Translations under genes and position numbers: made by a program | The notes under the pieces: model-generated | What the model saw: the letters and a program-made list of their open reading frames with translations, nothing else | What the model was told of the DNA's origin: nothing | Databases searched by the model: none | Shown here: positions 3,514 to 30,800 of the stretch, in pieces | Layout: the number at the start of each line of letters is the position of its first letter | How positions within the stretch are numbered: the first letter of the stretch is position 1 | Origin: Gnetum montanum | Lineage: Eukaryota > Plantae > Gnetophyta | NCBI GenBank assembly: GCA_015680685.1 | Contig: MNCI01001153.1 | Span: 751,160 to 815,159 of the forward strand | Direction: 5' to 3' | DNA: 64,000 nucleotides

Positions 3514-5500
3514 GATAAGAGTATGAGTATGTGGAAAAAAATTAGTTTTCCCTTATGTCTGCATGGACCTCATGGTAATATTAAATGGTGTACTGACCCT
3601 AATTACCTAGATCTTGAGCCTAAGAGTCTTGTAAACCACATAGCCTCAATAGAGAAACCTCTAGAATGGTCTAAAAACCTATTTAAAAGCATTGACTTAG
3701 AAGAAAGAGACATAGCCAAAGACTCTCTGGTTGAAGTTCCTATCATAGCACATAGTGATGAGAAGAAAACCCTTAAACTAAGTTCTGCACTAGAGCCTTA
3801 ATGTGCTCAAGACATCACCAAGATCTTACAAAATAACATTAAGGCATTTTCCTAGTCATATGAAGATATGCTATTCCTAGAACCATGTCTAGTCCAACAC
3901 AACATCATATTGGACCCTAGCATTAAACCAATTTAGCAAAAAGTGTGAAAAATTAGACTTGATTTGGCCTTGGTAGTTCACGATGAAATCTTAAAGACCT
4001 ACCAAGTAGGTTTCATTGGGGCTATAGATTATGTAAAATGGGTATCCAACATAGTGGTAGTCCCTAAGAAAAATTGGAGTATCTATATTTGCATTGATTT
4101 TTAAGAGCTAAATAAAGCAACTATTAAGGATGACTTCCGTTTGCTTAGTATTGATCAACTTATCAATACCATAGCTAGACATGCCTTGTTGTCCTTTATA
4201 GGTAGACTTTTAGCATATAACCAAATTAGGATCAACCTAGACCACCAACTTAGCACAACCTTTATGATCCCATGGGGTACTTTGCATTATATCATGATGC
4301 CCTTTGGCCTTAGGAACATCAGAGTGACATACGTATATCTTTAGTGATTACATGTTAGGCTTTCTTAATGATTACATAGATGACATAGCCATGAAGTCTA
4401 AGATGGTTGATGACCATGCTAATGACCTAGATCTTGTGCTTAAACAATGCCTCAAATACAAGCTTAGGCTTAATCTTAAGAACTATGTCTTTAGTTTCAT
4501 GATCTATAAGATGCTTAGCTTTGTAGTATCTAAAGCAGGGATATGCATAGATCTTGATAAGGTTAAGGTCATATCCAAATTATTAGCACCTACCAACCTT
4601 AAAGAGCTTTTGGAATTACAAGATAGATTACAATTTATTCATAGGTTTATCGCTAGGCTTATGAATAAGTTATAGCTCATGCAATGCTTACTTAAGAAAG
4701 GAGTTCACTATGAGTGGATAGCTCAATGGAAAGAGGCCTTTGAAAACCTTAAAAAAGAGTTGACACAACTACCAATGGTCTATTATCTACAAGAGGGTAA
4801 ACTATTTTACATTTATCTCACCATATTTGATACATCCATTGCCTATCTACTCTATCAGAAATGTGATGACAGAATAGAAATGCCTACATACTACCTTAGC
4901 CATACATTAGTTGCCCACAAGACCTAATACACTAAAGTGGAGAAGAATTTTCTAGCACTAGTCTTTTCATTGAAGAAATGGAGATACTACCTCTTCAAAA
5001 GCTAAGTCAATGTAATTTGCAAGGATAACATACTTAGAGTTATAACAATAAACATCTATGAAAGTAGCCATATAGCTTGATGGAAAGCCATAACCACAAA
5101 GTTTGACCTCTATTACATCTCTTAATCCTCAACAAAAGGTCAAGCTATAGCTATACAACTCATAGTTTCACCTATTGATGATCAAGAAACTATAGATTTT
5201 GAGTTTTTTGATGAACACATTGACATAGTTAGCCAAGTACCTGAGTGTTATGATGGAGTCATAAACTTTTATGGAGCTTCAACCATCCATGGGACTAGTA
5301 CTATTGCCATTGTAATATTCCCATCCAGTGAGATCCAATCCTTTGCCTATCATTTTGGATTCCCATGTACCAACAACATAGTGGAATATGAGGCTTTAAT
5401 TAGAGGGATGATGATAGCTTTTAATCTAGGAATTAGATGCCTAGTCATCAAAGGTGATTCATAACTTGTGGTTAACCAAGTAACCAAAGTCTATGCATGA
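3514..5500 (+). pseudogene. Degenerate Ty3/gypsy Tat/Ogre-type pol fragment: RT - RNase H - additional (archaeal-type) RNase H
   Basis: ORF fragments AYNQIRI..TTFMIPWG..MMPFGL, YIDDI, IDLDKVKVI and YYLSH, followed by an aRH-like GFPCTNNIVEYEALIRG. Many stops. Homologous to the minus-strand pol at 15000-17149. Confidence 0.85.
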
Positions 5501-8500: not shown

Positions 8501-9805
8501 GCAAAGTTTTCCCATATGACCAATCATGACTTCCAGAGGAAAGTGGTACATGGAAGAGACCTATCTCTTTTGGAACAATAGACAACCTGGAACCATCATG
8601 AAAATGAAGGACATAAGTGTGTCCTACTCAGTAAAGGCCATCTCGTAGGCCCTTGGTCTACCTAAAACTAGAACCAAGCTGGTAGAGATCTCTACACAAG
8701 TAGATCTAGAGGTCAAAAAGAAGTCGTGCACTCACCATGGTAGAACATGTGTACTTCAAGATAGTGGCCTACCACCTCAATTTGATGGTAAGGCCTAGCA
8801 AGGTGGCTACCTTCTTTGCCTATGTGTGCACTACTCTAAGCTTGAAATTTCCTGTTAACCTCCCACAACTAATCTATCTAGAGATAGAGAAGTGATTTAA
8901 ATAAAATGAACATGGGAGAAAGACACTTCCCTTCCCATGCCTCATCTAGAAATTATGCAAAAGAGGAGGGATAGCTTACTACTCCACCAATACATTCAAA
9001 CAAGCTCCTACTACCTCTTGGGTGGAAATGATAAAAGATAAGGTCCCTACCATGACTAAGGAAGAGGAGCAACCACCACCACCACCCACTTATGAAATAA
9101 AATTGGAGGTGTGTGCTGCCATGGAGTGCATGCAATAGCTCTAAGAATAAATCTTATAACAACAATAAGATATTCCAAGTGGTGGCTCATTTATCTACTG
9201 ACCAACCTTGAGCCATTTGAATGAGGTAACTCATACAATAAGCTAGTTAGAGAACATGACACCAACTTTCTTTGCCTGAAGAACATAGGTAGTTACATGC
9301 TTGAATCCAAATGCGCAAGAGGTAATGGTATCCATTCTAGAACAACAGAAGTTCCTAGTGTGCTTGGAGGTGGAGGATGTTGCTACCTTCTTAGTGTGCT
9401 TGGAGTTGGGTGATGGGATGACTATCTTGGTGATGTAGCATCAATAGTAAAAATGGTGGTCAAGGTGATAGCAAATTGAATGGGTGAGGTCATAAATTTT
9501 CTTATGACATCTATGTTGAATGGTGCTTCACTCAGAGATGTGTAGACACCTATAAGAATGATCTCTAGGAGATTTAGTACAACTCAACATGAGGAATTGT
9601 TTGAAATACTAGTGGGAATATGACAACTAATTTTAGAGTTCTTTGACCTCCTAGATGACATCACTGCTACCAACTCAGTGTGGTTATAGGCAAGGGATAT
9701 GTGCATCATTGTAAAGGCTCAACTTCAAATAGCTAGAGCTAGAAAGCAATGCTTGGCTATGGAGGTTGTAGAATTTAGAGCCTAGCTTGTTAATCCCATA
9801 GTACT

Positions 9806-11774
9806 TGTAGCATCCAAAAATGTTGGTGGCTAGAACACCAAGGATCACTGGGTACACAGCCTAACCCCGAGTCTATGGAAGGGTCGTATTGGAGAAGACT
9901 AAAATGGGGTGCCATGAATGGTCTAGTCAATTAGATAGGGACTTATGTGATGTACAATAACTATTTGTGAATATAGTTTTGAAAGCATCACATGTGGGAG
10001 CCAGGACAAGTAAGAACAAGACATACACAACAATGTGAGTGTACCAATGTGTATTGACAATAGAACTAAGTAATTATGTTAACAATTTGAAATACATGCT
10101 GAAATGAAATAAAGTGCAAGTTTAGGTGAAGAAATGAACCACCCCAAGTTTGGGGAATGTAGCTCTTAATTAAGTGATGTATTAAACTTGTACACAGTAT
10201 TAGACAGGCATAACAAGACAACAAGGTAGTATGCTCACAATCTCTGGGACATTGGAAACACGGTGCTAGTAGCCACCAGGGGAGCTAAACCTACTAGGTT
10301 GGTCATTGTCATGTTGTGCAAGTATGGGGTCATTATTATCAATAAGGTGTCATGCTCAAGTGATCAAGTGCAGAGGTGAGGAAAATTTTGGGAATGCTCT
10401 AATTCTAAGATTTTCCAATCATCAACTCTTCACTTGCCAATCTTTTGCAAAATCCAACTATAAAATACTAGAGCCACGGTTGATGACGGACATGGATTGG
10501 GTGCCACATGGCCTGGGTCCCACATAGCATGAGTATGAGCAAGTCACATTGACATGCTATGCTCAAAGTGTTAAGCTCAATAGTGCTACACTTTACATGA
10601 TAGGAATGGGAATTGAAAATCCACCAAACTATGACCATACTACATGAACTACATGTGCTAAATTCTGAAGGACTAACATGTACCTACAAATAATGTGAAA
10701 ACATAATGCAATTTAGAGCCTACACTCTAGGACTAAATCTTCCCCCTCTTTTGATTAGGATCAAGTGTAGGAACAATTCTGGGAATCAATAAGAGATGTA
10801 CTAGAAGGATGTTGGAGCTAAGAAGAAGATTGATGCAAATTTTTTCGAGCTCTTGGAGGCATTCGAAGGTGTTTTCCAAGTGTTATGCTATCTATGCTGC
10901 CTAGCATGATGAAGTGTAGCATGAACACTTAGAAACTTTTTGTAGTTTTCAGCTTGCTAGATTATCTATGCTGCATAGCATAGCTAAGCATAGCATCCAT
11001 TTTACAATGAATTTGATCAAAACTAAAAATTCCACTCTAGGATGTATTAAGATAGGAAACTTTAGCAACCAGAAAATGCATCTTCCATGTTAGAATAGCC
11101 TAATGCCTCTTATTTTCACACTTAGAAAAATATTTTCCTCGAAAACCTATAATGTTGGTTGTGCTATGTAGTGTAGTAGGGTGTAGCAACAATGTTGTAT
11201 GAATTTTTCCAAAATTCACAAGGTTTCTTTATGGAATTTTGACCATACTCTAAAGGTGAAGCAAGACAGGTAGTCTCAGTAATTAGAAAATTACCAAATT
11301 TGACAAACTCCAAATCCAACACTTAGAAAACTTTGAGCTCCTGAACTTGTCCTACGTTGTCTATTTTGTGTAGCTTACCAACCCCAAAAGATAGAAAAAT
11401 TGCCAAACTAGTTTTTCCATACTAAGCACCTTTGATATCTCCTAGCTTGGCACTTATGTGGACTAGCGATTGAGACATGTGTCAAGCTAAGCAAGCCAAA
11501 GAGCATAGCAAGCTTGACGGCCCAAGAGATAGAACATTTGCCAAATTATTTAGTCCATCCTCAGTGCCCTTCCTTGGAAACATGTGCTATATTGGTTGTG
11601 CTAGGGAGTCTAGCAAGAAAACTTAGAAAAATTTTGCAAACATTAGGATTTCCAGTGTGCTATGCTATCTACGCTATGCAATGTGATTCCAGACTTAGAA
11701 AAATTTTTCCCAAGTCTTGACACTTAGACAATTTTGTTGTTGAGTTGCAAGAGCCTGAAAGTAGTGGTGTTTCA
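9806..11774 (-). repeat. 3' LTR of the Tat/Ogre-like element
   Basis: Plus-strand TGTAGC...GTTTCA; colinear with 27355-29394. Confidence 0.9.
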
Positions 11775-13339
11775 TTGGTCCCTCTTTGTCAACGTCTAGA
11801 GGATTGACTTGAGAGATGTCAACAAAGAATGCGAAACACCATGATGAACATGACACCAACATCATTTTCCAGTACCCACTTGGACAATGCTTTGTTATGC
11901 TTGAGAGTGCCAAGGCATGAAGTATGGTAGGGAACTAAGGATAGGTTCAAGGAGATGGGTTAGGGGATAATGGATGGAAAGGATAACTATGGGATGTAAT
12001 GCCATGATAGGCTATTGCTATAGTATGATCCCTCATCAAAGTGCTTCTAAGGGAATTAGTATGTAGAGGCATCCTATCTTTTGGATTTCAACCTCTCATT
12101 GGAATGCTTATGAGACAGTCGATCTAGTTGCAAGATGGTAACTATGTCATTTGACTTGAGCATTTAGCTAGTTCCATTTTCGTTTCTACTTTCTCTTCTC
12201 TTCTTCTCTTTTCCCTTTTTTATGCTTTCTTTATCCTTGCTTCTTCTCTCTTCTTTTTTCTTTTCCTTTTCTCTTCTATATTTCTAGGTGAATTGCATGC
12301 CCATATCCACTTAAAGGCAAATGCATCGCAATTGTAAGATAGGTGTTTCCTACCTAGGATGAATTGTGTTACATCTAGGTGGGGCTTTCACTAGCCTACA
12401 ATGGCTTCCCATGGGATGAGTTGCATTATGTTTGTCATGGGTTCAACAATTAAGCATGGGAAAGGGTTTCATATGCATTGGAGAATCTTGTAAAAGATGT
12501 GGAATATTGCAAGAGCAAGAGGTAGAGGTTAGGTTAGTTGAGGGGATATTAGGGTATGCACTCTCAAGTAGCTAGGCTAGCCAAAGTAGATACATTGGAA
12601 TAATGTAGCGTCTTGCTCTCAAGGTGAAATGGATTCCTAAACAATGCGATCCATGCTTTATCCTACAAACACAACATAAAGAAAACAAGAGAAAACAACC
12701 ACTATGTGAGGTGAGGGAAAATTCCTACCTACTTGGAACACTACATGGGTTGCGAGCGCTATGTTAGATGCATGCAATGTCCAAAGTAGGAAGGCTAGTA
12801 TAGGCATCAATAGTGGTATTTTGGAAAGCTCCAGAAACCACACTAGAAGTGAGCACTTAAGAGGCTAGGAGCAATGGTGATGCTAGTGCTCCGACATTCT
12901 CACCAAAGGTAGGAGCCACGAAATTCAACTATAGGGTGAAGTGTCATGCTGCTAAATGCTCTTCCAAACTTTGACAATGGTGAGGGTTGGAGGATGGTAG
13001 CATTGTAGCTAGGCCATAGTACTATTAGGACTCCAACAGGAAGTGCTAACAATAAGAGCTACAACTAGGATGATTGGTGATGGTGGCGATAGCTCTAGAA
13101 GGTTAACATGAGGCCAAATGACATCTCCAAAAGATCAGCAAGATGCTAGGTATGGAAACATTGTAAATGTTCTAGAGGGTTTTCCCCTAACAATGTGAAT
13201 TTCATTCTAGAACTACAATGCCCCACCCCATCCTACCTAAGAGGAATGAATAGGCAACAGAAGATTGGAACTATTCTCGCTCACTTGTTCATAGGATCAT
13301 GTATGTTGAGGCATAGATGCTAAATTGTAAACCTAGTTT

Positions 13340-13665
13340 TAGGTATTGGTAGATTATTGGTTGTGCTAGTTTAATTCTCAATAGACCATGATCCCAGTTT
13401 AAGATTCGGGCAGATCATGCTATGCAAGTTTAAGGTCTTAGCAAACTATTGTGCTAGTTTAACATCATAGAGGATGGTGGATGGCCAAGTTAAGGTCATA
13501 GCAGACCATGCTATGGGTGCTAGTTTCATGTCATAGCCCAAGGACATTCTATGCTAGTTTAACATCATAGCGAATCAACTATTTCAATTTAATGTCATAG
13601 TAGATGTTCTATGCCAGTTTAACATCATAGCAGACATCATACGCTAGTTTAATATCATAGCAAAC
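13340..13665. repeat. Short tandem repeats (~38-50 bp, GCTAGTTTAA..CATAGCAGAC core) 3' of the integrase
   Basis: About 8 visible degenerate copies of TAGTTTAA(C/G)(A/G)TCATAG. Confidence 0.75.
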
Positions 13666-13699
13666 ATTTTTCTTACCTTACTTTCATTGTCAATGTGAT

Positions 13700-16600
13700 A
13701 CTCCATGTTAAGTGTAATATGAATTTATGTACAAGTGGTTGATAGGATTGACAAACTCATTGCCATATAAATTATCAAGCTTGAAGGCTTCATTTTCATA
13801 TGCCTTAGTGACCAAGAAAGGCCCTTCTTAGTTAGCTAAGAAATTGTTCACGGGCTCGCAAATAGCCTTGAGAACTAGGTTCCCTTTCTTGATTGGGCAC
13901 TGGTGTAGATTGTGGTGATGCTTTTTCCATTGCTTCTCTTGGTACCACTTGATGCAACCAAGCATTTGGATGCACTCTTCCTTTGTAGAGTCAAGATCAA
14001 TGGTTCTCGACTCATTTTTTTGAGCCTCATCCATGAAGTTTGAGAGGATCATGTGAAGTAATGGAACTTTTAATTCAAGAGGAAACATTGCTTTAGATCC
14101 ATATACAAGACTATATGGTGTTTTACCTATTTCAGTTCTACATGTTATGTGGTAGGCGCAAAGTGCATAGATGAGTTATTCATGCCATCATTGCTTGCTA
14201 TTGCTAAGTGTCTTCTTTAGAAGGTTGATGATGACCTTATTTGTAGCCTCTACTTAGCCATTTTCCTGAGGGTAGTACAATGATGAAAAGGAGTGTTTAA
14301 TGTTGAGGTTTTCATAGAAGGCTTTGGTTTTTGTACTACTAAATCATGACCTGTTGTCTGTGACTATAGTCATGGGGAGACTAAATCAGTTCACTATATT
14401 ATCAAGAATAAATTTGCAAACTTTCTAAGATGTTTTCTTCCTAAGGGGGATAGCTTCTACCTACTTTGTGAAATACTCAATTATGATAATAATGAAGTTG
14501 TGTCCTATGAAAGAATTAGGCGCTATAGGTCCTATGATGTCCAACCCCCAACATTGAAATGGATATGTGATTTGTGTAGTATGTAGTTCGGTCAGTGGCA
14601 TATGTATGAGATTCCCATGCCACTAACACACATTTCATGCCTTGACCATGGAGACATAATCATGCTCCATATAAGGCTAGTAGTAGCCTAGACGCCATTA
14701 CCCTAGTAGCTATATGCCCCTCACATAGTCCTTCATGTACTTGGTCAACAATCTTTTGTGCTTCATTGTTGCTAACACAAGTTAACAATATCCCAACATA
14801 AGGTCTATAACATAAGGTACTGTCACCTATGAGGACATACTACTGCAATTATTTTCACACTATGTCCTTTTGGGTAGGTGCTAAGTTTTATGGGGTTTCC
14901 CCCTATTAGAGGTATGCTTTGATGTTGTCATACCATTCCTAGGCATGAAGTGTACTTATGGATGCAATACTTGGTGTGTGGATTATAGGTTCAATGCAAT
15001 CCATTATGGAAGCAGGCAAAGTAGAGAACATATTCATTGATACACTTAAGCCTAACGTGGCCACTGCGTTAGCTATGACATTTTTGTTGTAAGGAACATG
15101 TTGGACATCTATGGTTGCAAATTTTTTTAATAAGCACTTTGCAAAATCATATTAAGGTTGTAGGTGTTATTCTTTATAGGCATAAACCTTTGTAACTTGG
15201 TTAATAACTAACTATGAATCACCTCAAATTTCTATATTTCAAATACCTAGCTCCTGAGCTACTAGAATACCTCTAAGGAGACCTTTGTATTCTACTACAT
15301 TGTTTGTACAAAGAAACACAAAGTGGTACACAAAAGGTTGAATCTCTCTAGAGGGAAATCTGATAACAACAGCGGCACTACCAGCTTACGTGGTAAAAGC
15401 ACTATCAAAGTGTAAAATGGCCTCAAATTCTATAGGTACCAGGCTTATACTGCTAACATGCTTGTCTAGGAATTCTAGATCTACTATTGCCTGATCATCT
15501 ATAGGTGAATCTATGAGTTGCATGGGTATTGCTTGACCCTTTGTGGATGACTATGCTATGTAATGTAGGTCAAAGTCTGTGGTTATTACTTTCCATCTAG
15601 TTATTTTGCTACTTTCATATATTTTGGTTCTAATGGCCCTAAGTATGTTAGTCTTGCAAATTATGTTGACTTGACTATGGAAGAGGTAGTGCCTCCATTT
15701 TTTATACACAAAACCAAGGAAAGATAGTTTTTCTCCACATCGTTGTATTTTTCCTTGTGCACTATTATTGCATGACTTAAGTAGTTAACAGAAATCTCAA
15801 AAACATCATCTCTCTTTTGACAAAGTAGAGAAACAATGGATGTGTTTGAGGTTGCGAGGTAGATGTAGAAAGGCTTATCTCTTTGTGGAGGATAGATAGT
15901 TGGGAGATGAACTAGCTCCTTATTCAGGTTGTCGAATGCTTCTTGGCATTGATTTGTCCACTCAAAGTTGACTCCTTTTTTGAGTAGGTGTTGCATTGAG
16001 AGTAACTTATTAGTTAACTTGGTAATAAATCTATTTATAAATTATATTCTACCTTGTAATCTGCATAACTCCTGAAGGTTTGCTGGTGGTGCTGAGTTGA
16101 TAATAGCCTTGACCTTATCGGGATCTACGTGTATTCCTATTTCTAATACTACAAAGCCTAACGCACAACTAGTTTTAATGTTGAAGACACACATTTTGGG
16201 ATTAAGGCAAAGGTCATGCCTATGGCAACATTGAAGGACAAGGTTCAAGTCATTTGTGTGGTCATGAGCCTTCTTGGACTTAACCATTATATTATCAACA
16301 TAGTCATTTAGCTATTTTAGAATATATTCATTAAGATGTAGGTCATTACATGTTGGTATCTTGCTCCAGTGTTTTTTAGTCCAAAGGGCATCATTGTATA
16401 GCAAAATTCCCCTAAGGGGTCATGAAGGTAGTAGTAAGTTGATGTTCTAGTTTTATACAAATTTGGTTGTACCTTGAGAACCCATCCATGAAGGATAACA
16501 AGCCATGACCGGTCATAGTATCGACAAGTTAGTCAATACTAAGAAATGGTAAATCATCTTTGATGGTTACCTTGTTTAAGTCTCAAGAGTCTATGAAAAT

Positions 16601-17149
16601 GCATATACCCCTAGTTTTCTTAGAGACAATCATGATGTTTGATAATCAACTGCCTAGATGAACCTAGCTTGGTAGAGTTTAATTATTTCTTCATAGATGG
16701 CTAATGCGATTTCTGGCTTGATTTTATGAGCTTTTTGTTTGAATGGCTTGACACATGGATCTAAGATAATGTTGTGTTGTATTATGTGTGGGTCTAAGCC
16801 CAACATATCTTCATAAGACTATGCAAATACCTTTACATTGTTGTTAAGAACTCTAGAGATACTTTGCTAGATTTATGGCTCCAGTAAAGAGCTAAGCTTC
16901 AAAGTTATTACCTCACCTTTACATGTTGTTGTGGCGGTTTCTATGAGTGGATCCTAAGTTACATCACCAGCTTCTAAATATAAAGCTTGGACTAGATGTT
17001 TTGGCTGGTCTAGTGATGTTTCTAATGATGCTATGTTGGTATCACAAAGAGGTGGTTCAAATTCCAACATCTCATGAGTTTGCCATGGGTTCCATTTGAG
17101 GTTAAAGATGAATGAAGATTCTTGTGTGTGCTCATTTTCCCAAACAATC
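13700..17149 (-). pseudogene. Tat/Ogre pol: RT, RNase H, additional RNase H, integrase (degenerate)
   Basis: ORF remnants IHVDPDKVKAI, FYIYLATS..NYLSH and MFPLEL..KKGNLVLK. aRH FVCTNNVVEY at ~15290-15320. Integrase YYPQ.NG..VEATNK at ~14235-14280. Confidence 0.85.
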
Positions 17150-17559
17150 CTACAAAATAACTAGAAAAATATGAAGTGGTACCTTTCTAATAAAGAAAAA
17201 TGAAGAAAAGTGCATAAAATCAGGAAAATAATGCTATAAAAAGTAACTATGCAGTATCTCAAAATTGCCAGTTTAAGGTCTTAGCGGACCATGACTATGC
17301 ATAAAGTATAAGGCTAAGCTAAAGTTGAAAGGCTTGAAGTGTGGTGCTAAACTAAATGTTCATTGGACAAGTAGAAAAAATGTAAAAAAAACTACAAAAT
17401 GTGAAAAGCCAAAAAAGTTGAAAATTTTTTCTAACTCCGTGTGTAATGCTACATAGGACACGGGATGTTCTACATTACGTGCAAAACACAAAGCATCTCA
17501 CGTTACATGTGGAACACAGGATGTCCTGGAAAAGTGACATGTCATGTGACCTTGGAGGG

Positions 17560-20500
17560 TATAAATAGGGGTTTACCCATGGTAAACCTATCACTTTCAC
17601 TATCAGAGCTAATAGTTCAAAGCATAGTGCAATTTGAAGTAGAGCATAACAACTACAAAGCATGATAATCGACAAGCCAGAGCTTGACAATGAAATAAAG
17701 GTGTGTAGAAGCAAGTGTAGATACCTTGGCCTTGCTAATGTGGATGAAGGTGAGCATCCCCTATGATATCTTCCTAGGGCATGTGTTCAAGAGTGTCAGG
17801 AAGAACCGTCTACTAGGTAAGCCATCATGCTTCCTTCGTTAATTTTTTCATTTTTTTCCTGTTATGTGTTTATGCCTTGGGGTTTTGGGGGCACCCTTCC
17901 CTAAGCAAGTATTGTTGTTGTCACTACCCCAACCATGGTTAGTGTGCTATGGCTGCTATAGCCATTGTGCCTTTGCTGCCACCCTTGTCATGGCCACTAT
18001 CGCCACCGTGGCTAGGAATGGCATGGGCATCATAGATTGCATGTTTCCATTTTTGTTGTTTTCTTAAAGGGTTTGTATGACATTCTAGGTTGTGGCAGTA
18101 GGCAAGGATTTCATCACAGGCCTTTGGGTGTTGGATGAAGTAAGGTAAGCTAAGGGTTCTATTTCATGCCATGTAGTAGTACAGAATGGGGATTTTACAT
18201 GTCCCATTTAGTGTAGTGCATGGGAGAGGGTTTTGGTACTTCATGTTCCATGTTGTGCGATAGGGGTTTCTTGTGTGTTTCATGTGGTGGAACAAGGTAA
18301 GGGTTTCGTAAGTATCCTACATTAGCTTTCAGGCTCTATGGCATCCCTGATAGCGTAACTACCAAGTTGAAAATATGTGCATTCATCCATTGCTATGCTC
18401 CCTAGGAGCATGACTAAGACTTTGTACATTTTCTTCAAATTTTTTCCATTTATGTATACTTTCTACACTGCATGGGAGTATGTATAGTTACTGCACTACA
18501 TGGGAGGTATAGTTGCTATGTTGTATGGAAGTATGTATAGTTGGAAAAATTTCACTCTACAAACTCTTCCCAAAATGTCATACTCCATAGGAGTGTGGTG
18601 AACAATTAGAAAAATTTCATTTGACTACTTGTCCTACAGTTGTTACCCTCCATGGGAGCATGATGAACACTTTGAAAAATTTTATTAGAAAATTGTTATG
18701 CTCTACAGGAGCGTAACTAATACTTAGAAAATTTTTCAAATTTTTTTTGGCACATTTTGTCCACTATTTTTGTTGTTTTATTACCATTATTATGCACTAA
18801 CATTTTCATTGTGACAATGTAGGGTTATGCTAAAACTGGTTCTCATTGTGGTTGAGCTTGTAGGGATATTGTGCTATATAAGCATCCCCATGTCCAATGT
18901 CCTTGCACCACATGCATGAGTAGGAGGCCAGGAAATCTAGTTTTGATAGGGGTCAAAAGAATTCTTGGAATTCCTACTTTATCACTTTAGCATAATGATG
19001 TGGTCACACTTGTATCCTAAAGCAACAAGTGTTCTAGTTGAGACATTATTGCTTGGGGTAAATCAAGGCATTTTAAAATTCATGATGAATGGACCTGCTA
19101 AGGGCAAAGGGGCATGGGGCTCAAGTCAATGTCTAAAAGGCTTAAGACCCTTATCTTGGATCTAGGAAATGCCAGAGCTTAAGTGCTACCATAAATATAA
19201 TACTTTATTCGTTACTCACCATGTGGGTATGGCCTTCTAAAATACACCTAGAACCATATACTATGTTAGGGGGTAAGTGTTATTGGGATGATAGAAATTT
19301 TATTTTGTTTGCTTTGTATATCTTGAAGTGTTTATTGTCGTTTTATCTATTGTTAGATTCTTGAATGATAATGACGGTCTTCACGATAGAGAAGGGGCAT
19401 TAGCCCTAACCCAGACAACACTATGAGAGTTCTCATCCACTGAGAATATGTGCAATGGCATCATAGAATAACTTGGGATAGATATGAGAACTTACCCAAC
19501 CAAGTACTCCAAACCCTATGTGAAGTTTTGGGATTTTAGGTGGTTAGATGGTGAGTGGGCATCTTGCCGGATACCTACTGTGGAAGAAGTGTCAGTAAAA
19601 ATACCACCATTTCCCACACCATTCATGCTAGGTGAGTTATATTATTTTTTATTTTCATGCATTTTTTCTAACTACTTTTCCATTACATGGATGATTCTAC
19701 TTTTTTTTATTGTAGTAGCAATCAAGTCCAAGGAAGTCACAGTGATCATCTCAAGGTACATTAAGACTAACCTTCTTTTTAAATATGGCAAGGTTGATGA
19801 TTCATAGTGTTGGTAATGTCATGAGGCCCTAGCAACAATTACCCAAAATGTTCAAGAGGCTGGGCTTATGAACCTCTTTTTGGTTGTCAACCCAAGCATC
19901 CCAAAAGTAGAAATAATTTCCCATGTTAACTCCTTTATAGAAAGAATTGACCACTTTCACATGCAAGTTCATAACATGCAGGTGGTCTTTGAGATCACTG
20001 ATGATCTCTTTTTACATCTCTTTGGTGTCCCCTCTGCTAGTTTACTTATGGATGAAAAAATAGTAAGTATCTAAACCACTGAGGGAACATTGAAGAATGG
20101 TTGGGCACTGATAAAGATTGCAAGGGAATTTACATGAAAAAAGTCAAATTGATGGTAGCCCAACACATTTATCCCATCTTCCAAGCTTGCGCTTTTCCCA
20201 AGCTACTTTCCCAAGGAAACGTTCTTGGGTTAGAGCAAGCTTGGATCATGAGGGATGTAATGGAGAAGGGAACACAATACAACTAGGCCACATATCTTGT
20301 TGAAGGATTATGGGCTGAAATGATCAAACTGTGTAGTAAACTTGAGGCACCTTCTCATGTTCACTTTGCATTTTTTATAGCATGCTTGCATAGGTTCACA
20401 AAATTTATGGTTGTTCATGAAAATGGGATATGGGTGGTGCAAGATCACATCCAAATATCGAAGCCATGGATCTACCATATATTCTACACAACTTGGTCAT

Positions 20501-22564
20501 AGGACCATCTAGAGACCACTAGTGAGTCTTTTTCAATGACCACCAAGGACCAGGTGGGCCTGTCCTACCGCATGCATGATAGTCTTGCAGAGGCTCCTCC
20601 CATCAACATGGGCAATGTAGTGAGAGGGGTAAATCTCATTGCTAATATGGTAAAATCAGAATTTCAAATCAAAAATCCTCATCTCACAAAGGTACCCTCA
20701 TGCACAATTGAAGAAAGGGGTAAGAGGTTATGCATCAGAGTCCTCAATGTTTGGTTTGAATGTTTTGGTAAGTATGCCTCAATTAGCATATTTTTTGCTT
20801 CTTTTCTCTTTTTTTCTTTTTACCTATATATGTTAATACAAGTTCTCTAACCTTACCTTATGCATCATAGGTAAGGAGGAGGCCCCTACCATAAAAGAAG
20901 AGGCCCCTGCTACAGAAGAGGAGGCCTTAGTAGAAGAGGAGCCTTTTGTAGAAAGTATTCCATAGCTTGAGGGACATATTATAACTAAATATGTTGTTGC
21001 ACTCCTAAGGTAGCTCAAGGAAGAGGGGCTGCATTTTGAGGATGGTGAGTTTGATGGTTTGTTTGACAATGTGCAGATGGGCAATCCCTCCACTCTTACC
21101 CTTGAGGATTTTCTAGGTAGGAGCTTTGCATTGCCATTTACATTACACTCTTGCTTCCCTCTTTCCTCTCATCCTCTTCTCTTTTCTTTTTGTTTTTTTT
21201 CCCTTCTTTTTTTTCATAATGCTAATATGCTTTATCATGCAGTGAGTGATACTTATGCTAAATGCCTTAAATCATTGTCCATTTTCTACTTACAACTATG
21301 GGTAGAACCCTAGACAAGTTTGCTTTTATGCAGGGCATAGTGGATGATATGGTGAATCATCTAAAGCAAATAGATCTTGAGATAGGTATATTTGGGTCAT
21401 TGTGTTTTTTTTTTCTTGTGTTTTTTCATTTTTGTATTATAACTAACATTTCCTCTCTTCGATGTAATAGCGTCATGACTTAAATGGGACACAAGAAGGG
21501 AAATCAAAGTTGAAGCCATGCCTGAGCTCCCTCCTAAGGTAGCAGAGATGCCTTGTCATATATATGACAAGGCAAGAAAATGCACACTACACTCAACATG
21601 ATCATTTTTGGAGTGTAGGTGTGTAAATGAGGACCTATGAAAGTGAGTTCAAAAACTTGAAAAAGAAAAAGCAAGCCAGGTAGCTCGATTGGAGGACTTA
21701 CAAATGTGGTATGAATTTTTAATTGCCTATGATAAATTAGACTATAGCTGGCGCACGGCCGTGATTGATTATGCTAGATATTGGTTGACTGTGAGGGGCA
21801 AGAATGAAGCTACACATGAGGTAATCAAGCAATGCCTATAGATGGATCTCTTGGCCCAAAAGAATCAAGATTGAAAAGATTCCAGTGCTAAGATATATGA
21901 ATGGGGGCAAGCGCAAAATAATCACAAGCATTAGTACAAAATGGAATGTGTTGCCTACCACAAAAATTACAAAAATGATTTTGTAGAATGTTGAGGTTGT
22001 GAACTATTCCTTGACACAATTGGTGCTACCCAAGATTGTGATAGATTTGCAAAGCACCTAGTGGTTAGTGAGTCCCCAAAGAGGAAAATGACCATGCCTT
22101 CTAGGGAAGGCACATCTACTATGTTTTCTCGAGGGCCACCCCTATGGATAGCCATGGAGAAAGGAAAGATCCTAGCAACCATTTACTTAGTAGAGGAAGA
22201 CTGGGCAAATATGATAGAGGAGGAAATCCTCCAGTGCTTGGAGTCTTGCCTCAACAAAATGTTGCTAGACATGGATGCAAGCCCATCTCAAGTTGGTTAA
22301 GTTTACTTTATTACAATTTATTTCATGATATCTTCATATGTTATCCTACTTACTAATTGGTTTATTGTTTTGTCTTTAGTCTTTATAGGATCTAGATGGA
22401 GATGTAGGACCTAGCAGAGTAGTGGATAAAGATAGGGGAGAGGAGCCATAGTCTATACACTAATGTTTTAAAATGTTTGAAATGTAACCCCATTGTTGGA
22501 CAATTTTGTAACTTTGAAAGTGGATGTAATCTTGGACTATGTATTTCATTTACAATTTAATAAA
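17560..22564 (+). pseudogene. Antisense multi-exon gene (~8 exons) of unknown function inside the Tat/Ogre element
   Basis: TATAAATA at 17560. GT..AG introns with T-rich tracts at 17817-18822, 19273-19356, 19632-19715, 20768-20870, 21117-21242, 21386-21470 and 22296-22388. AATAAA at 22559. Plus-strand ORF fragments cluster in the exons. Confidence 0.6.
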
Positions 22565-22629
22565 AAATCATGATACTTATTTTATTTCTTTTACTTAGTG
22601 TTTTTGTTAATGTAATTAGGCCCCTTGTA

Positions 22630-22862
22630 TGCCCCATGTGATAGTTTAAGGTCATTTTAGGCCATGGATAGTTTAAGGCTATTTAGGGCCATGCTATAGT
22701 TTAAGGACATTTCAGGCCATGGCTAGTTTAAGGCCATTTTGGGCCATGCTATAGTTTGAGGCTGTTTTGGGCCATGGGTAGCTATAAAAGAGAGTGGGTT
22801 GCTAGTTTTAGGTCTTAGCGGGTCATGCAATAGTTTAAGGTGATTCTGGGCCATGTGATAGT
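22630..22862. repeat. Tandem repeats (~26-35 bp, GCTATAGTTTAAGGCCATTTTGGGCCAT-like)
   Basis: Six to seven visible copies; core shared with 13340-13665 and 17270-17320. Confidence 0.8.
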
Positions 22863-22979
22863 TACAAAGCATAACTAATGTAGAAAGCAAACATAATGCA
22901 AAATCAAAACTATACAAACAAAAGTACTAAAGACAAATGAACTAAAAGAGTAAATTAGGAACATGCCCTAATCACATAC

Positions 22980-25900
22980 ATGTTTCCTAACTTGATGTGG
23001 GTTAGGTGATGTGTATGGCTTGGAAGACGTGAGGCAATACTCTTCTAGGTTGTCATTAGCTATTGAAAAAGGCAACTATGCCCATATAGTTTCTTCATGT
23101 AGATCATTAGTTTTGCTTGTTTCACTTTTCAAACAACATTGGATTTTATTGTAAACATGTGATGCATCTTTAGAGACTTCTATCTCTAACCCTTGCTCTG
23201 TGTCTATATTGTTGATACCTCAAGGGACTATGTCGTTAGCAAAGATCACCACTTCTCCATGTGCATAGTGTAGGTGGATCTCTTGGTGGATTGGTGAAGA
23301 GCAACCCTAATCAGGCTAACCAAGATCTTCCTAAGATTAAATTGAACCTAGGCATATCCTCTACCACAATGAATTCTACATTAGTGGGGAATTGATCCCC
23401 TACCATGAAATCAATAGTGACAGTTCCCTTGACCATGACACGTGCCACATTGAATGACTTACAATAAGAAGTTGTTGTGGGCTTGATTTGACCCACTAGG
23501 CCTAGCTTGTCGAAAACAAGGAATAGGATTACATTGGTTGTGGCCCCATCATCAACGTGCATACTAAGAATCCTATATTGACCTACACGAAATTATTATG
23601 AACATAGGGGCAATGGTTACTTGACCCATTTCAAGATTGGCTTTAATGGCTTCATCATGAAAAGTTAAGAGGTTTGACTATGGTTCTTCAATTGTAGGTG
23701 GAAGCATGATGGCATGAATGGCTCTTTCCTCTACTATCATATCTTCCTTAACAAGAATGGATGCCAACATGTGGATCCAAGCCTCATGATGTGCAGAAGA
23801 AGTCATTATTAAATCATATAAGCTTAAAGTTGTATTTATTTTTTTAAAATCTTGTCTAACCTATGTAAGTGCATCTAGGAAATCTTGTCCACTATCTAGT
23901 TTTTTGGTGGTTTTTATTTCCTCCGTATGCCCTAAGATATGAATTCCCTAAGGAGGAGAGGACTTAGATTTTGATTGGGAAATAGGCTTCTAGGCTTTGG
24001 TAGTTGCTTGTTGTAAGTGCATTTCCATCTTATCTTCAAGTGGTGGCACCATGGGAACCATTGACAAGGGGGTGGGCTTAGGGGGGCCTAGTGTAGTGTG
24101 TTCCCTAATCATCTTGTTAGCTAGGTGCTCATCATGTTTCCTTAGGTGAGAAGGTTATGATGTAGTTCCAACCACTAGACTCTGGGCAGATAAGGGGTTT
24201 GTATGTTTTGGCATCCTTTCAACAAAAGATGCTTAGGTTGTTGTTGCAACATGCTATGGGTCCTTGACCACAAAAGTTGTTGTAAGTGCTCGTGATGGTA
24301 CCTTGATGACAAAGGGGGCCTATGGCCTAGTTGACATTGAAGCTTCAACACCATGGGAAGGCACATGAACCATAAATAACTCATGTGTTGACTCTATGTT
24401 GTCATCAATGCTAATAGCATTAATGGTATATCCTACACTGTTAACATTCAATGGGTCCTTATAGACATTCATAGATTGGTTCTCTATCTGAATAGGACTA
24501 TTTTCATCAAGGACTAGCTTACCTTGATCAATCGTGCATTGGATGTCATCTTTCAATGATAAACAATAATCCATGTCATGACCACACAACTAGTGATAAT
24601 TGCAAAATTGATACAACCTAAAATTTTTGGGTACTTGAGGCTCATTGGGCATGGTTACAAAGGGTTCTTGGAGGATCTCACAATACTTCTCATGATGTTT
24701 GTGGGCATCTTTTAACATTTACATATGTTGAATGCGCCTAGCACTCAGTAGTTGATCCAAAAGTTCTGATGGCTTATTCAACAAAGGGGTATATTTTGAG
24801 TGATCCTTGTACTCAAAGTTTAATCTTGGAAAAGCTTGCATTGTGGCTATTGTTGATGTGGGTTGGTTGATTCCTACATTGCTAAAGTTGGATGTTTTGT
24901 TGGCAGTGATTAGGGCCTTAGGTGCCTTAGACACTTACTTGTTGTTGTTGGTCTTGGCTTCACTAGCCATAGTTTCCATAGTAGTTATCATGGCTTTCCC
25001 TTTTTCTTTATCTTTCTTTACATGTGTGTTCTTGTAAGCTATGTAAGACAAGTCTTTGCTAGCCTCTACTACATCTTGTATGCTCTTTGTTTGAGCAAAG
25101 TCTTGGCTAAGGAAGCATGAGGCTAAATAATATAGGTTAAATGTAATGAAATTGTTTACAGTGCCCTTAAAAATGGCCACTAAATGGGATTCAGCAATTG
25201 GCTCACAAATCTCATTTAAGGTAACACTCCAACATTATATGAATTTCTACATGGGTTCTAATGATTCTTATTTAACATTCATGAGCTAGTCTAGAGTGAC
25301 TTCTAGCTTCAAGTTGTACTTGAAGTGAGTTACAAACTAACTTAGCAACTCCTCTAGAGTTGAAATGGAAGTGTGAGGAAGCACACGATACCAATCTAAG
25401 GATTTGCTAGTCAGGGACATGGAAAAGAAATGAATGACTACATGTGGCAATGGTTGTAGTAACAAAGACTCAGAATGAAAAGTGACTAGGTAAGCATTTG
25501 AATCACCTTCTCCATTATATTTCATATATTGGGAAAGCTAGATTCTAGGAGGCAACATGAGCAGAGGAATGACGGGGCTAATAGGATCATCTTGCTAGAA
25601 TTCCATTACATGGACTATTTCAAAGTTGGAGGCTTTAAGCCACTTAACCTCATTAGTCAAGGTTTGGATGAGCTGGAATGCTTGATCTAAGCTCAAGGAT
25701 GTTGCAGAAGGTTGTATTAGTTGTACCATTGTTGGTGCCATTAGAGTAGCTACCATGGATGGTGCTGTTGGTGCAACTACTAGTCGTGTTGGGGGTGCTA
25801 TCAGAGTAGCTCCCATTGGTGGTGTTGTCTGAGTGGCCCACAACCCTGTGGGTGGTCCTACCAAAGCGACTACCATTGCTGGTGGGGTTTGAGTGGCCCC

Positions 25901-26450
25901 TAGCCTCGTAGGTGGTGCTACTAGAGTAGCTACCATTGGTGGTGCTATGGCAACGATTACCTTCCCTGATATTGTTGGAGTAGCCCATAGCCCTATAGTT
26001 GGTTGTGCCATATGTGAAGCTTGATATGTTTGCAGTTGCATATACTATGGCATCTGAGACAATTGAGCAGTAGGAAAAGGCATCACTGCCCACCACATAG
26101 TTGAAGTTGGAACTACTATTGGTGTTGGGATTAACATAGAATAGGTAATGGAAATAGGCCTTGTTTGTGGCTACGATGTGGGCATAGTATGCACATATGG
26201 AAATGTGAGCATCACAGACATTGGCTATGAAAATTGAATAGACTACGAAGGAAAAATAAAGGGAAAGGAGGCCAAAGGCCCTACATGCTATTGCTTTGAT
26301 AGAATTTGATGGCTACCTACCACAAAGAAAGGTTTGGAGTATAGAACTATCGTAGCCATCACAAAGGAGGTAGAAGACTATGACTGGTGTGAAAGGAACA
26401 TAGAGGTAGACTATGAGGCTAAGGCATAGAGTGGGCCACCACCTTCGAAA
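22980..26450 (-). pseudogene. Tat/Ogre gag-protease (degenerate)
   Basis: Gag core KYNGEGDSNAYL..FFSMSLTSKSLDWY; zinc-knuckle remnant GHDMDYC; protease VDDGATTNVI..FNLILGRSWL (23311-23562). Confidence 0.8.
25730..26000 (-). repeat. 60-bp coding tandem repeat (Pro/Thr/Ala-rich 20-mer) in the gag N-terminal region
   Basis: About 4.5 copies translating as PPMVATLVAPPTRLGATQT-like repeats. Confidence 0.8.
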
Positions 26451-27331
26451 TGATATTCAAAATCCTCTTACCCATCTTGGAGGGGCTCACCATAGTGGGA
26501 CAATTTGTCTAACTCTTTTAACCCACTCATTTAAATATGTTGGTCCAAGATCGATTGCAAAGTTTCAATGAGCAATATAACTACATTAGGGATGAGAAGG
26601 AACTCCCTTCAATTTTGATGAATAATTTCAAAGTTACAATTTTATTCTATTTCTTGGTAGTCCAAAAATATGCCTGCCTAAACCTTTATGTATTAAAAGT
26701 TGTATCATTCCTCATCAAGCATTGTGTGTTTAGCAGATTGGTGCCATAGTCTAAGAGACTACTATTGTAGGTGTACTAGGCTTAGTGGCTACTCAATGTC
26801 CACCGTATGTTGTAGGGGATGAGTTATCTCCAAGCTCAAGGTTGTAGCTAAGGCACCAAGTGGGTTAATTTTCACTATGTCAAAAAAGATGTGAGAATAA
26901 ATCAAACTTGTAACAAATGGTCGAATACAATAAATATTGAGCTAAAATGATTAAGTAGGTAAGTTGTACAGAAAATAGGCCAAAAATGGCTAAGTTTGAA
27001 AATTCTGAAAAAATAATAGTCTATGTTGTTACGCTTGTCACGCTCTATGGTATTTTCATGCTGATAGGGTTGACATGCTCTACATAACACTTAGAGCTTG
27101 ACGCAGTGAACAATTTTGGACTTTCTATCCTATAGGATTCCAAAGGAACCATCAACTGAGACCAATCTACACCAACCAAAGTGTGGATGACTCCTGTGCT
27201 AGCCTATGATCCAGCTACTACCATGGTAGGTCCATAGGGATGTTATGTCTATGCTAGCTTTCCATTAGTGATGGGGGTACAAAAAGTATGTGGGACTACA
27301 AATGGCACATAGAAGGAACACAGAGGTTTAG

Positions 27332-27349
27332 GCCCTTCTTCTATCACCA
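27332..27349 (-). promoter_or_regulatory. Primer-binding site of the Tat/Ogre element (tRNA not assigned)
   Basis: Minus-strand TGGTGATAGAAGAAGGGC, 5 nt after the end of the 5' LTR. Confidence 0.55.
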
Positions 27350-27354
27350 AAAAT

Positions 27355-29394
27355 TGTAGCATCTAGAAATGTTGATGGTTAGAACACCAAGGGTCATCAG
27401 GCACATAGCTAAACCCTGAGTTCATGGGAGGGCCATGCTAGAAAAGATGGAAATGGGGTCCTTGACTAGTTCAGTTAATTAGATAGGGACTTATGTGGTG
27501 TAGAATAACCATTTGTGAATAGAGTTTTGAAAGTGTCACACACAAGAGTCAGGAAAACCAAGAATGGGACATACACAACAACGTGAGTGTGCTAATGTGT
27601 ATTAACAATAAAACTAAGTAATTATGCTAACAATTTGAAATACATGCTAAAAGAAAATAAAGTATGAGTTTAGGTGAAGAAATGCACCAACCCAAGTTTC
27701 AGGAATGTAGCTCTTAATTAAATGGTGTATTAAACTAGTACACAATATTAGACAAGCATAGCAAGATAGCAAGGTAGTATGGTCATAGTCTTTGGGGCAT
27801 TAGAGGCATAGTGTTGGCAGCCAATAGGGGAGCTAAACCTACTAGGTTGGCCATTATCATGCTATGCAGGTATGGAGTCATGATGCTCAACAAGGTGTCA
27901 TGCTTGAGTTCTTAAGTGTAGAGGTGAGGAAAATGTTGGAAATGCTCTAATGTTGAGATTTGCCGATCATCAACTCTTCACTTGGCAATCTTTTGCAAAA
28001 TTCTATTATAAAAGCCAACCCTTGGAATGTTGATTACTGGGGTATTTATAGAGCCAAGACTAATGAGGCATGTGGATTGGATGCCACGTGGCTTGGGTCC
28101 TGTGTAACATGAGTGTGAGTAGGTCACACTGACATGCTACACTCAAAGTGTCAATCTCAATGATGTATGCTTTACAGAATAGGAATGGGAACTAAAAATC
28201 TACCAAACTATGACCATACTACCCAAACCACATGTGCCAAAGTATAAAGGACTATCATGTACCTACAAAAAATGCTAAAACACAATGCAATTTGGAGCCT
28301 ATGCTCTAAGACTATGTCTTCCCCTTCTTTTGAGTAGGGTCAAGTGTAGGAACAATTTTGGAGATCAATAAGGGGTGCAAAAGGAAGGTAAATTGCTGAT
28401 CTTGACCACTAGAAAGATGTTGAAGCTAAGAAGAAGGTTGATGCCAAGTTTTGGGAGCTCCTAGAGGCATTTGAAGGTGTTTCCAAAGTGTTATGCTATC
28501 TATGCTTCCCAGCATAACGAAGCGTAGCATGAACACTTGAAAATTTTTGCAATTTTTGGCCTACTACACTATCTACATTGCACAACATAGCCAAGCATAG
28601 CACCAAATTTTTAGTAAATTTTGTCAAAATTGGAAATGCCACTATGGGATGTAGCAAGATAGGCAACTTTAGCAACTAGAAAATGCATCTTCCATGTCAG
28701 AAAAGCTTGATGCCTCCTATCAGCCTCAAAAACCTATGATGTTGGCTGCACTATGTAGCATAGTAGGTGATAGAAACAATATCAAATAGTTTTTTTAAAA
28801 ATTCACAAGGTTTCTTTATGGCATCCTAACCATGCTTTGAGGGTGAAGTAGGATAGGCAGTCTCAATACTAAAAAATTGCCAAATTTGACAAACTCTAGA
28901 TCCAACACTTAGGAAAATTTTAGCTCTTGAACTCATGGTACAGTGTCTACACTATGTAGTGTAGCAAACCCAAAAGATAGAAAATTTGCAAAAAAAAAAT
29001 TCCATGCTAAGCAGCTTTGACAACTCGTAGCCTAGCACGTTGGTGGACTGGCAACCAGGACATGTGTCAAGCTGGGCAAGTCAAAGAGCATAGCAAGCTT
29101 AATGGCTTGGGAGATAGAAAATTTTCCAAACTATTTGGTCCATCCTTAGTGCCCTTTTGACTTCTTTTGGCTTGATGTTTATGTAAATTAGCATTGTAAA
29201 CATGTGCTACGCTGGCTGTGCTAGGGAGCGTAGTAGGCAGACTTAGAAAAATTTTGCAAACATCAGGATTTCCATTGTGCTATGCTATCTACGCTGTGTA
29301 GCATGATGCCAGACTTAGAAAAATTTTGCTGAAGTTTTCACACTTGGACAATTTTGTTGTTGAGTCACAAGAGCCCAAAAGTAGTGGTGTTTTA
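27355..29394 (-). repeat. 5' LTR of the Tat/Ogre-like element
   Basis: Colinear with 9806-11774; followed by the GTACT TSD. Confidence 0.9.
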
Positions 29395-30800
29395 GTACTC
29401 AATCAAGTAGTAACTAGGGATGAAGCTTTGTAGTAGCTTTTGTCTAAACTTGAAGAGGATGAGTATGCAAAGGATTCAAAAATCTTTAACCAGTTCTTAG
29501 CTAATGTAACCATCTACAACATTGAGAAGGACTTGTTGGAGGTTCACCAGGAGAATGAAAATCTAACAAACGATAATCATCACCCAGACACTGTCAATAT
29601 CTAGAAGGAGAAAATGGTTAAATACATGAGATAGTAGTAGGAGCAACTTGCGAAGGTGATAATGGATTTAAGGAGGTTGATAGCTGATAAGTGTTCTCTC
29701 TCAATGGAGGAGGTCCATGTACTTCATCATAGATCTACAAATTGTTAGTTGGAAGAATGAGGCCTTGAAATTCAAATAGGTTAAAAATCACTATAGGAAC
29801 CACGTTGGCTTGCAAAATGAAATCAATGAAAAACACATCCAACTGGTGAAGATGAAGGTGAATGAGATCCTCTAGTAGCTCCAACAAAGAGGTGATGTAT
29901 GGTAGCTCATGTTTGATGGATTGAATGAATATAACAAGGCTAAAATCCACCTTAAGAAGTTGCAAATTAAGGAGATAATTGAATACATGGAGCTCACCAA
30001 TATCTGCTATGCAAACTTAGCAATGCTAACTTCTAGAAGACTATCATTGGATTTGGAGAAACAAGTGGCTAGCTTGTACCTATTTTATAAGGCTGAGTTC
30101 AAGCACCATAAGGAGACCAAATAGAGGCTTGAAATACTACATGAGAAACTTGATGTTCTCAAGTAGCACTTTATTGATCAAAGATCAATAGTTGAGAACC
30201 TAGCCAGTATGTTGAATGACTACTAGGAGCTATAAAATGATGTCAAAGTGTTTGACATTGAAGCAATTCATAGCCTAGTTCATCAATGTGAAGGATTTTT
30301 TTTCCTACAATGCCCTATCCATGGAATGGTCCTATATCGGCCCACATTGATGATGTCACATGGACTATGTACAATCCTTGAAGTAAGGAGGAAAAGATGA
30401 AAGCATTGCTAGATGCTTTCTATCTTCCACTAGCAATCGTAGCTGCAATTGGATAGCCACAACTACAACCTCAACCACAATAGTTGCATGCATTGAAGAC
30501 ACAAGAAGGTCTTTTAGCACCTCAAGAACCTTCACTACCTAGGATTGTCTAATTTTCTTCCTCATCATAAAGCTGATAGTAGAGTTGTTTTATCAATTTT
30601 TGTCATAGTATTCAATTTTTTTGTCATGAACATCAAATTTTGTAATGATTGTAAATTTGTACTCTTGGGCACTTAGTGTTTGTTTGTGTTAATTTGTGTA
30701 TTAGTAGTTAGTAAATAATGTCATACCATTCAAAAATTTTGTAAAGAACTTGTTCCTCCTTTTGACTTCTGGACAAAGTGTTCATTCAATCATGGGGGTA

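Follow-up and report, generated by a model that had tools for sequence, protein, structure and literature searches.

Long terminal repeat (LTR) retrotransposons of plants are described as generally lacking introns, Ogre and EVADE being the exceptions named (PMC12786077). In Ogre elements, whose reported size is 7.7-24.1 kb, the spacer between GAG-PROT and reverse transcriptase (RT) is a partially spliced intron in pea and Medicago, with a mean length of 274 bp, and is removed from a subset of transcripts (PMC6317226). The same survey reports an antisense extra open reading frame (eORF) at the 3' side in 60% of Ogre elements, 431 with a PMD match; its methods describe a search only 5' or 3' of gag-pol, for single open reading frames (ORFs) of at least 250 codons (PMC6317226). 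The typical Tat eORF is given as PMD plus coiled coil (PMC4408406), a dedicated antisense promoter and a product located in the nucleus are reported for Grande gene23 (PMC7264820), and where Tat antisense ORFs come from and what they do are presented as open questions (PMC7264820, PMC11963269). Multi-exonic antisense transcripts conserved across families have also been reported from Arabidopsis Ty1/Copia (bioRxiv 10.1101/2024.04.02.587720). Here we describe a Tat-type element of Gnetum montanum, in a stretch of 64,000 nucleotides (hereafter the window; GCA_015680685.1, contig MNCI01001153.1, forward-strand positions 751,160 to 815,159), in which protease (PR) and RT are separated by 5.83 kb. 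We suggest, with a probability of roughly two in three, that this segment is a family-native giant Ogre-type intron holding a decayed antisense gene of seven predicted exons, likely for a nuclear regulatory protein.

The element and its spacer

With its LTRs, a 5-bp target-site duplication (TSD), the gypsy domain order and an additional ribonuclease H (RNase H), the element is a member of the Ty3/gypsy clade Tat, as a second RNase H defines that clade. On the minus strand its order is gag-PR, the 5.83-kb spacer, then RT, the first RNase H (RH), the archaeal-type RNase H (aRH) and integrase (INT). Window coordinates are as follows.

9806-29394, minus strand: whole element, a single Tat-type insertion of 19,589 bp; LTR pair from self-comparison, identical 5-bp TSD
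27355..29394, minus strand: 5' LTR; TSD at 29395-29399
22980..26312, minus strand: gag-protease frame, broken; gag by eye only
about 23320-23571, minus strand: protease (Pfam Asp_protease_2, E 0.002, below cut-off)
17150..22979, minus strand: PR-RT spacer, predicted intron, 5.83 kb; donor GTATGT (22979) and two candidate acceptors, with ends at 17150 and 17161
13721..17149, minus strand: pol, broken by stops and frameshifts; RT a weak Pfam RVT_1 match
15664-16041, minus strand: RH (Pfam RT_RNaseH_2)
about 15056-15406, minus strand: aRH (Pfam RVT_3, E 1.8e-16)
about 14269-14562, minus strand: integrase (Pfam rve)
9806..11774, minus strand: 3' LTR (TG..CA); TSD at 9801-9805
1-5497, plus strand: second Tat pol (the sister element), 67% identical to the first, truncated after aRH

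A decayed primer-binding-site-like sequence starting with TGG lies 5 nt downstream of the 5' LTR; in Ogre elements this site pairs with tRNA-Arg. The insertion is old, because the LTRs are only 81% identical (Kimura two-parameter distance 0.22). The element's Gag, recognized by eye only, matches no Pfam family. A first-pass annotation of the window, made from the sequence alone, had labelled the element Ogre, a label whose sole basis is the layout, with GAG-PROT set apart from RT-RH-INT by a spacer and aRH between RH and INT; that placement of aRH is as in Ogre but is not diagnostic of the subclade. The RH-aRH order is reported as common to Ogre and Retand (PMC6317226) and also from conifer II, gnetophyte and fern Tat clades, including Tat J, Tat K and fern Tat D (PMC13468544), so that the order fits several subclades. 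Between pol and the 3' LTR we found neither a low-stop frame nor a Pfam match on the strand of a 3' antisense eORF, and no eORF was detected 5' of gag. A plus-strand TATAAAA at 10459, at the same offset in the other LTR, is a possible antisense LTR promoter, and at about 12190-12288 the plus strand has a strong pyrimidine tract that ends in AG.

The splice signals claimed for the spacer are present: the minus-strand GTATGT donor at 22979 after the protease, the acceptor TTTTGTAG/GAT (the slash marks the junction) ending at 17150, and the GTAG/GAT of the second pol copy at 3513. As a pair, 22979 and 17150 fail to join gag-PR to RT in frame here; given the decay, an indel could account for the mismatch, and either 17150 or 17161 may be the acceptor. 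The gag-PR frame stops three codons past the GTATGT, and coding on the RT side restarts at about 17149. On the element strand, U content rises from 0.23 to 0.47 across the donor and falls from 0.45 to 0.25 across the acceptor, with a like step from 0.47 to 0.30 at the sister's GTAG/GAT (3513). GT sites between 22960 and 23040 form four in-frame pairs with AG sites between 17140 and 17260, and donor 22979 is in frame with the AG ending at 17161, 11 nt upstream of 17150.

The antisense gene

On the opposite strand the spacer contains a gene model of about 910 codons, all six of whose GT-AG junctions connect the lowest-stop frames.

17560..17567, plus strand: TATA-box-like site TATAAATA, 410 bp inside the spacer's 3' end
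17662..17816, plus strand: exon 1, coding part; ATG at 17662, an inferred start
17817..19356, plus strand: intron 1, 1540 nt, GT-AG, phase 2
19357..19631, plus strand: exon 2
19632-19715, plus strand: intron 2, 84 nt, GT-AG, phase 1
19716..20767, plus strand: exon 3, best-conserved core among other copies, one frameshift
between exons 3 and 4, plus strand: intron 3, 103 nt, GT-AG, phase 1
20871..21116, plus strand: exon 4, acidic, EEAP repeats
between exons 4 and 5, plus strand: intron 4, 126 nt, GT-AG, phase 1
21243..21385, plus strand: exon 5, one frameshift
between exons 5 and 6, plus strand: intron 5, 85 nt, GT-AG, phase 1
21471..22295, plus strand: exon 6, charged, possibly coiled-coil, basic PKRK patch
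22296-22395, plus strand: intron 6, 100 nt, GT-AG, phase 1; acceptor picked from three candidates
22396..22453, plus strand: exon 7 with stop codon
22559..22564, plus strand: AATAAA polyadenylation-like signal

The TATA box and AATAAA that had been claimed for this strand are found at 17560 and 22559, and the EEAP repeats prove to be encoded by 21- and 18-bp tandem repeats at 20879-20953. The first-pass annotation had counted about eight exons and six introns of 84-126 nt; the frame-consistent model has seven exons and six introns, of which five are short (84, 103, 126, 85 and 100 nt) and one measures 1540 nt. Of the predicted introns five are in phase 1, intron 1 alone being in phase 2. A sixth short intron at 21539-21618 was rejected (T 0.26, not U-rich, and within a continuous frame), and additional small exons within intron 1 (such as 18089-18144) were dropped, as they break the frame.

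Several properties argue for a real coding sequence. The five short introns have a U content of 49-56%, against about 18-40% in the exon pieces measured, and introns 1-5 are frame-matched at boundaries suggested by composition, which would occur by chance in roughly 1 in 240 cases if independent; for intron 6, one of several candidate sites had to be chosen. With two frameshifts assumed and X read at the breaks, the model has 17 stops in 909 codons, compared with a shuffled best-frame mean of 54 and minimum of 37 (1000 shuffles), and base use by codon position is non-random across the model (p=1.5e-14; intron 1, p=0.26). Gag-pol, in nine pieces, has 53 stops in 1956 codons (2.7% vs 1.9% for the gene; Fisher p=0.19), a count slightly raised by an internal frameshift, and the CpG observed/expected ratio is 0.14 for the gene and 0.12-0.18 for gag-pol. 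Because stop density and CpG depletion are alike, we infer that the gene was about as intact as gag-pol at insertion and then decayed alongside it.

By analogy, the gene likely encodes the element's own nuclear regulatory (accessory) protein. The Cys clusters claimed for it are visible as Cys-rich patches that match no family, and the claimed coiled coil could not be confirmed: it agrees with a crude heptad scan, but the fold is unusable (pLDDT 38), both single-sequence folds having reached only pLDDT 37-38. By eye, exon 3 may resemble PMD/Transposase_32-type eORFs. Scanning of the exon pieces, which are decayed and split, gave no Pfam match, including to PMD (PF10536) and Transposase_28 (PF04195), the element's own Gag being likewise unmatched. 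In homolog searches of low power, whose RNase H control from the same element recovered none of 166 (at E 1e-10) and none of 18 and for which Gag offered no Pfam family, word-index searches for the gene confirmed none of 138 and none of 36 candidates, metagenome and viral contigs none of 29 and none of 5 pattern matches (with 0 matches to the repeat pattern), PDB sequences gave a sole match at E 0.31 across three queries, and the ESM Atlas a best score of 0.78 or no usable match. Two phmmer matches among 1.84 billion representatives, both to long repetitive proteins over single stretches of -1 to 10 bits, were rejected.

Repeats shared with the rest of the element

The segment shares short repeats with other parts of the element.

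13335..13667, no strand assigned: array of 28-30-bp tandem repeats immediately 3' to the integrase stop, with homology to 22560-22979
17264..17300, no strand assigned: one unit of the 28-30-bp repeat close to the acceptor, in other copies expanded to a variable array (joints going back 35-57, loose ends at 17301)
22634..22860, no strand assigned: 28-bp tandem repeat array near the donor end

Short motifs in common with the LTR and the 3' region had been put forward as a sign of nativeness, and two such motifs were found. The donor-side 420 bp align locally with the post-integrase array (z=10). A 13-mer of the repeat, allowing up to two mismatches, occurs five times in the spacer, five times just 3' of the integrase, three times, with its orientation to pol unchanged, upstream of the sister's acceptor and four times in the remaining 41 kb outside the element, the maximum per region being two in 100 shuffles. 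A 14-mer occurs six and three times in the LTRs and six times in the spacer (shuffle maximum 2), and four of the six spacer copies cluster on the same strand in intron 1 (18539-18722). Both motifs were chosen after matches had been seen, which makes the shuffle contrast optimistic. Intron 1 (18615-18777) and the U3 end of the LTR (11569-11741) align weakly (z=3.8), a similarity that may reflect an LTR remnant or shared binding sites. No pair of terminal inverted repeats (TIRs) bounds the gene, the longest inverted match between the end regions being 10 bp; TIRs of an independent transposon were what the first-pass annotation had named as speaking against its reading. CACTA at 17598 and TAGTG ending at 22600 were tried as transposon ends and rejected, the next bases agreeing at one position of eight.

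The sister element has the acceptor and the repeat. On its opposite strand, a TATA-like site stands 406 bp from the acceptor (410 bp in the main element), followed near 2913 by a donor-like AG/GTGAGT; the similarity between the two promoters is not significant (z=1.9), nor is that between intron 1 and the sister's upstream DNA (z=0.7). No protease match was found in at least 3.5 kb upstream of its acceptor, and its spacer may also be long.

Other copies and RNA

Part of 16000-24500 is present in 9 of 21 sequencing runs listed, the best of which may be what the window itself was derived from. We aligned four runs (two DNA, two RNA) at 80% likeness to 15000-20770, which covers pol, the acceptor and exons 1-3 and leaves exons 4-7 and the donor outside. 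In both DNA runs each of the 30 bins over 15000-20770 is covered, all bins between RT and the exon 3 end are multi-copy, and most aligned contigs are less than 90% alike and thus represent other copies. Summed depths, which are not copy numbers, have medians in the two DNA runs of 6827 and 7511 over 11 pol bins (minimum 2281 and 2773), 2468 and 2987 over four exon 3 bins, and 470 and 397 over seven intron 1 bins. Exon 3 is thereby covered 5-7 times as deeply as intron 1, a contrast that fits coding constraint. In the promoter bin (17509-17701) the depth is 7265 and 10211, pol-like and about 15-fold above its neighbours, and either a promoter common to many subfamilies or cross-matching to other LTR TATA regions would explain this.

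Of over 48,000 contig pieces 16 are listed, and these include contigs of about 81-85% identity that bridge the RT-side boundary, the stretch from the TATA box to exon 1, and intron 2: one divergent contig crosses the acceptor (17102-17390, 42 other letters), another reaches from the TATA box to the first donor site (17566-17860, with 54 other letters), and intron 2 is spanned by two, each with about 50 other letters. The joint 17303 -> 17529, found in both DNA runs, ties the 28-30-bp repeat to the promoter. One stop in exon 3 is private to the present copy, because about 99% of depth-weighted relatives differ there. The claim of a native accessory gene thus gains from multi-copy depth, divergent bridging contigs, decay like that of gag-pol, repeats in common with the 3' region and the sister element, and the lack of matching TIRs, the bridging covering the RT side to intron 2, and the segment is probably native to the element family.

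None of the runs listed as containing 16000-24500 is an RNA run. The two RNA runs that were aligned contributed 250 and 229 reads, nearly all less than 95% alike, mostly on pol and from other copies; RNA depth over the gene is 0-3, and none of the 15 joints listed of 361 has RNA support, the reads being too few for a verdict. In one RNA run, over 15000-15964, reads on RH and aRH are strongly one-sided, and eight show a poly(A)-like end, located at plus-strand position 15704, which suggests antisense-to-pol RNA from some other copy.

Other features of the window

34992-40070, plus strand: ORF of 1692 codons without interruption, encoding domains of movement protein, protease, RT and RNase H; CpG observed/expected 0.55 vs 0.12-0.18 in the Tat element
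40181-40870: 229-codon ORF after the 1692-codon ORF
34361-34818/53500-53957, 41609-42020/53979-54323 and 56936-57462/59486-60010: direct-repeat pairs of other decayed elements
61992-62179: run of 188 N

The region 34992-40870 looks like a young endogenous caulimovirid-type insert, with a layout that is possibly florendovirus-like.

Discussion

We propose that a full-length RNA made from the 5' LTR would retain the spacer, serve for translation of Gag-PR as far as the stop three codons past the donor, and be packaged. A fraction of this RNA would be spliced from 22979 to an acceptor near 17150-17161, giving Gag-Pol. From the internal promoter at 17560, an antisense pre-mRNA ending near 22559 would be spliced to about 910 codons. 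Because genomic RNA carries the antisense introns as CT..AC and would not have them spliced, they would be copied intact. That they survive because they are antisense had been suggested by the first-pass annotation, and the geometry agrees with it (CT..AC on the genomic strand, with 14-26% U there), while no spliced read was seen in RNA too sparse for a verdict. Because the spliced Gag-Pol message would lack the gene, unspliced genomic RNA would be the sole possible pairing partner of the antisense RNA. As to its origin, an Ogre-type 3' antisense cassette was likely relocated into the intron by recombination at the 28-30-bp repeat, since the repeat follows the gag-PR stop as well as the pol stop and the element has no 3' eORF.

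It would be tempting to go further and view the protein as a VANC/PMD-like sequence-specific regulator binding the motifs repeated in the LTR, its own intron 1 and the tandem arrays, an idea by analogy that we regard as doubtful. MAIN is a PMD protein. VANC is reported to resemble MAIN structurally (PMC13547354), and the VANC anti-silencing proteins of VANDAL DNA transposons are reported to target motifs that often form tandem repeats in non-coding regions (PMC5735166). On this view a clade of Tat retrotransposons would harbour, within its own Gag-Pol intron, a fully spliced accessory gene for roughly 900 residues. If true, this would be an anti-silencing and autoregulatory system in an LTR retrotransposon, whose spliced Pol mRNA escapes antisense pairing.

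A number of observations weigh against the proposal of a native intron with an antisense gene. The pair 22979/17150 is out of frame in the present copy, and no splice junction was seen for the spacer or the antisense transcript in the two RNA runs with their few reads. Bridging contigs are under about 520 nt and none spans the whole stretch, so the entire layout was not seen in one relative, and the comparison with other copies reaches from pol to the end of exon 3. Moreover, many relatives may hold other sequence near the repeat, because depth is down at 385-605 over 17316-17508 and at 57-173 in the early part of intron 1, and 72 contigs of one run depart from the sequence at 17301. The sister has no detectable homolog of the gene, nor of gag-PR, in its 3.5 kb upstream. 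The protein matches no PMD, Transposase_28 or other family, which makes "regulator" a term by analogy only.

These points leave room for other explanations. The gene might be a passive passenger, derived from a DNA transposon (CACTA TnpA-like or MULE VANC-like, both multi-exon) or from the host, which entered an ancestral intron, lost its ends and was amplified without serving the family. Multiple short spliceosomal introns are typical of such genes, the sister lacks a detectable homolog, and CACTA at 17598 and TAGTG ending at 22600 are both TTT-flanked; yet only one of eight bases agrees beyond this pair, the TATA box lies outside it, and a divergent contig crosses 17598. The frame was also as open as gag-pol until insertion of the present copy, exon 3 is better preserved than intron 1 among copies, and LTR motifs lie within intron 1, all of which makes a passenger unlikely in our view. 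Slightly less likely still is that the gene is native but the spacer is not one intron, pol being expressed from, for instance, an internal or bidirectional promoter near 17300-17700 and the GT/AG signals belonging to shorter introns. The out-of-frame pair, a promoter bin as deep as pol and a length about 20 times the Ogre mean (PMC6317226) fit this idea, but the steps in U content are sharp at either end, with one at the corresponding place in the sister, the donor stands just before the gag-PR stop with an in-frame acceptor 11 nt off, and there is no minus-strand TATA-like site near RT.

A copy-specific nested insertion of an independent high-copy element seems very improbable. Multi-copy depth alone would suit an independent repeat, and the protease side lies outside the copy comparison; however, divergent contigs connect RT to 17390, the repeat to the promoter (17303 -> 17529, both runs) and the promoter to exon 1, the decay level equals that of gag-pol, and no TIR pair was found, the inverted matches between the end regions reaching 10 bp at most.

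A native intron with an antisense gene would have several implications. A multi-intron gene inherited via an RNA intermediate would be the natural mirror image of the antisense-intron reporter cassette, and suggests that retained introns do not by themselves exclude retrotransposition and that accessory genes can escape ORF surveys limited to 5' or 3' single ORFs. It also offers a direct test, with the repeated non-coding motifs as candidate targets of an accessory protein. A parallel is HBZ of HTLV-1, a spliced antisense gene of a retrovirus. In the literature searched we found no antisense intron-containing gene between PR and RT, most subscription journals being outside its coverage and the REXdb per-element table possibly listing long PR-RT spacers.

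Compared with known systems, the element is like Ogre in the spacer that separates GAG-PROT from RT-RH-aRH-INT, its 5-bp TSD and its size; unlike in Ogre, the spacer is 5.83 kb rather than 274 bp on average and houses an antisense gene, which has six predicted introns and no PMD match. With the accessory ORFs of Retand, Grande and RIRE2 it shares an antisense gene with a predicted internal promoter, beside family-specific tandem repeats, and a proposed role as a nuclear regulator (PMC11963269, PMC7264820), whereas theirs are placed between pol and the 3' LTR and treated as plain ORFs (PMC11963269 contains no instance of the word "intron") and ours has no Transposase_28 match. Like the antisense RNA of Ty1/Copia, the transcript is spliced, here by prediction, in a plant LTR element; theirs is reported as non-coding and starting in the 3' LTR, whereas ours is predicted to be coding, to start internally and to lie inside an intron of the sense strand. 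VANC resembles it as a protein encoded by a transposable element, with a putative accessory role, a possible coiled coil and repeated non-coding motifs nearby, but comes from a DNA transposon and was shown experimentally, and we obtained no sequence or fold link between the two. Thus, we conclude that the feature is real, probably native, and, with its splicing and function predicted, a new arrangement of known parts.

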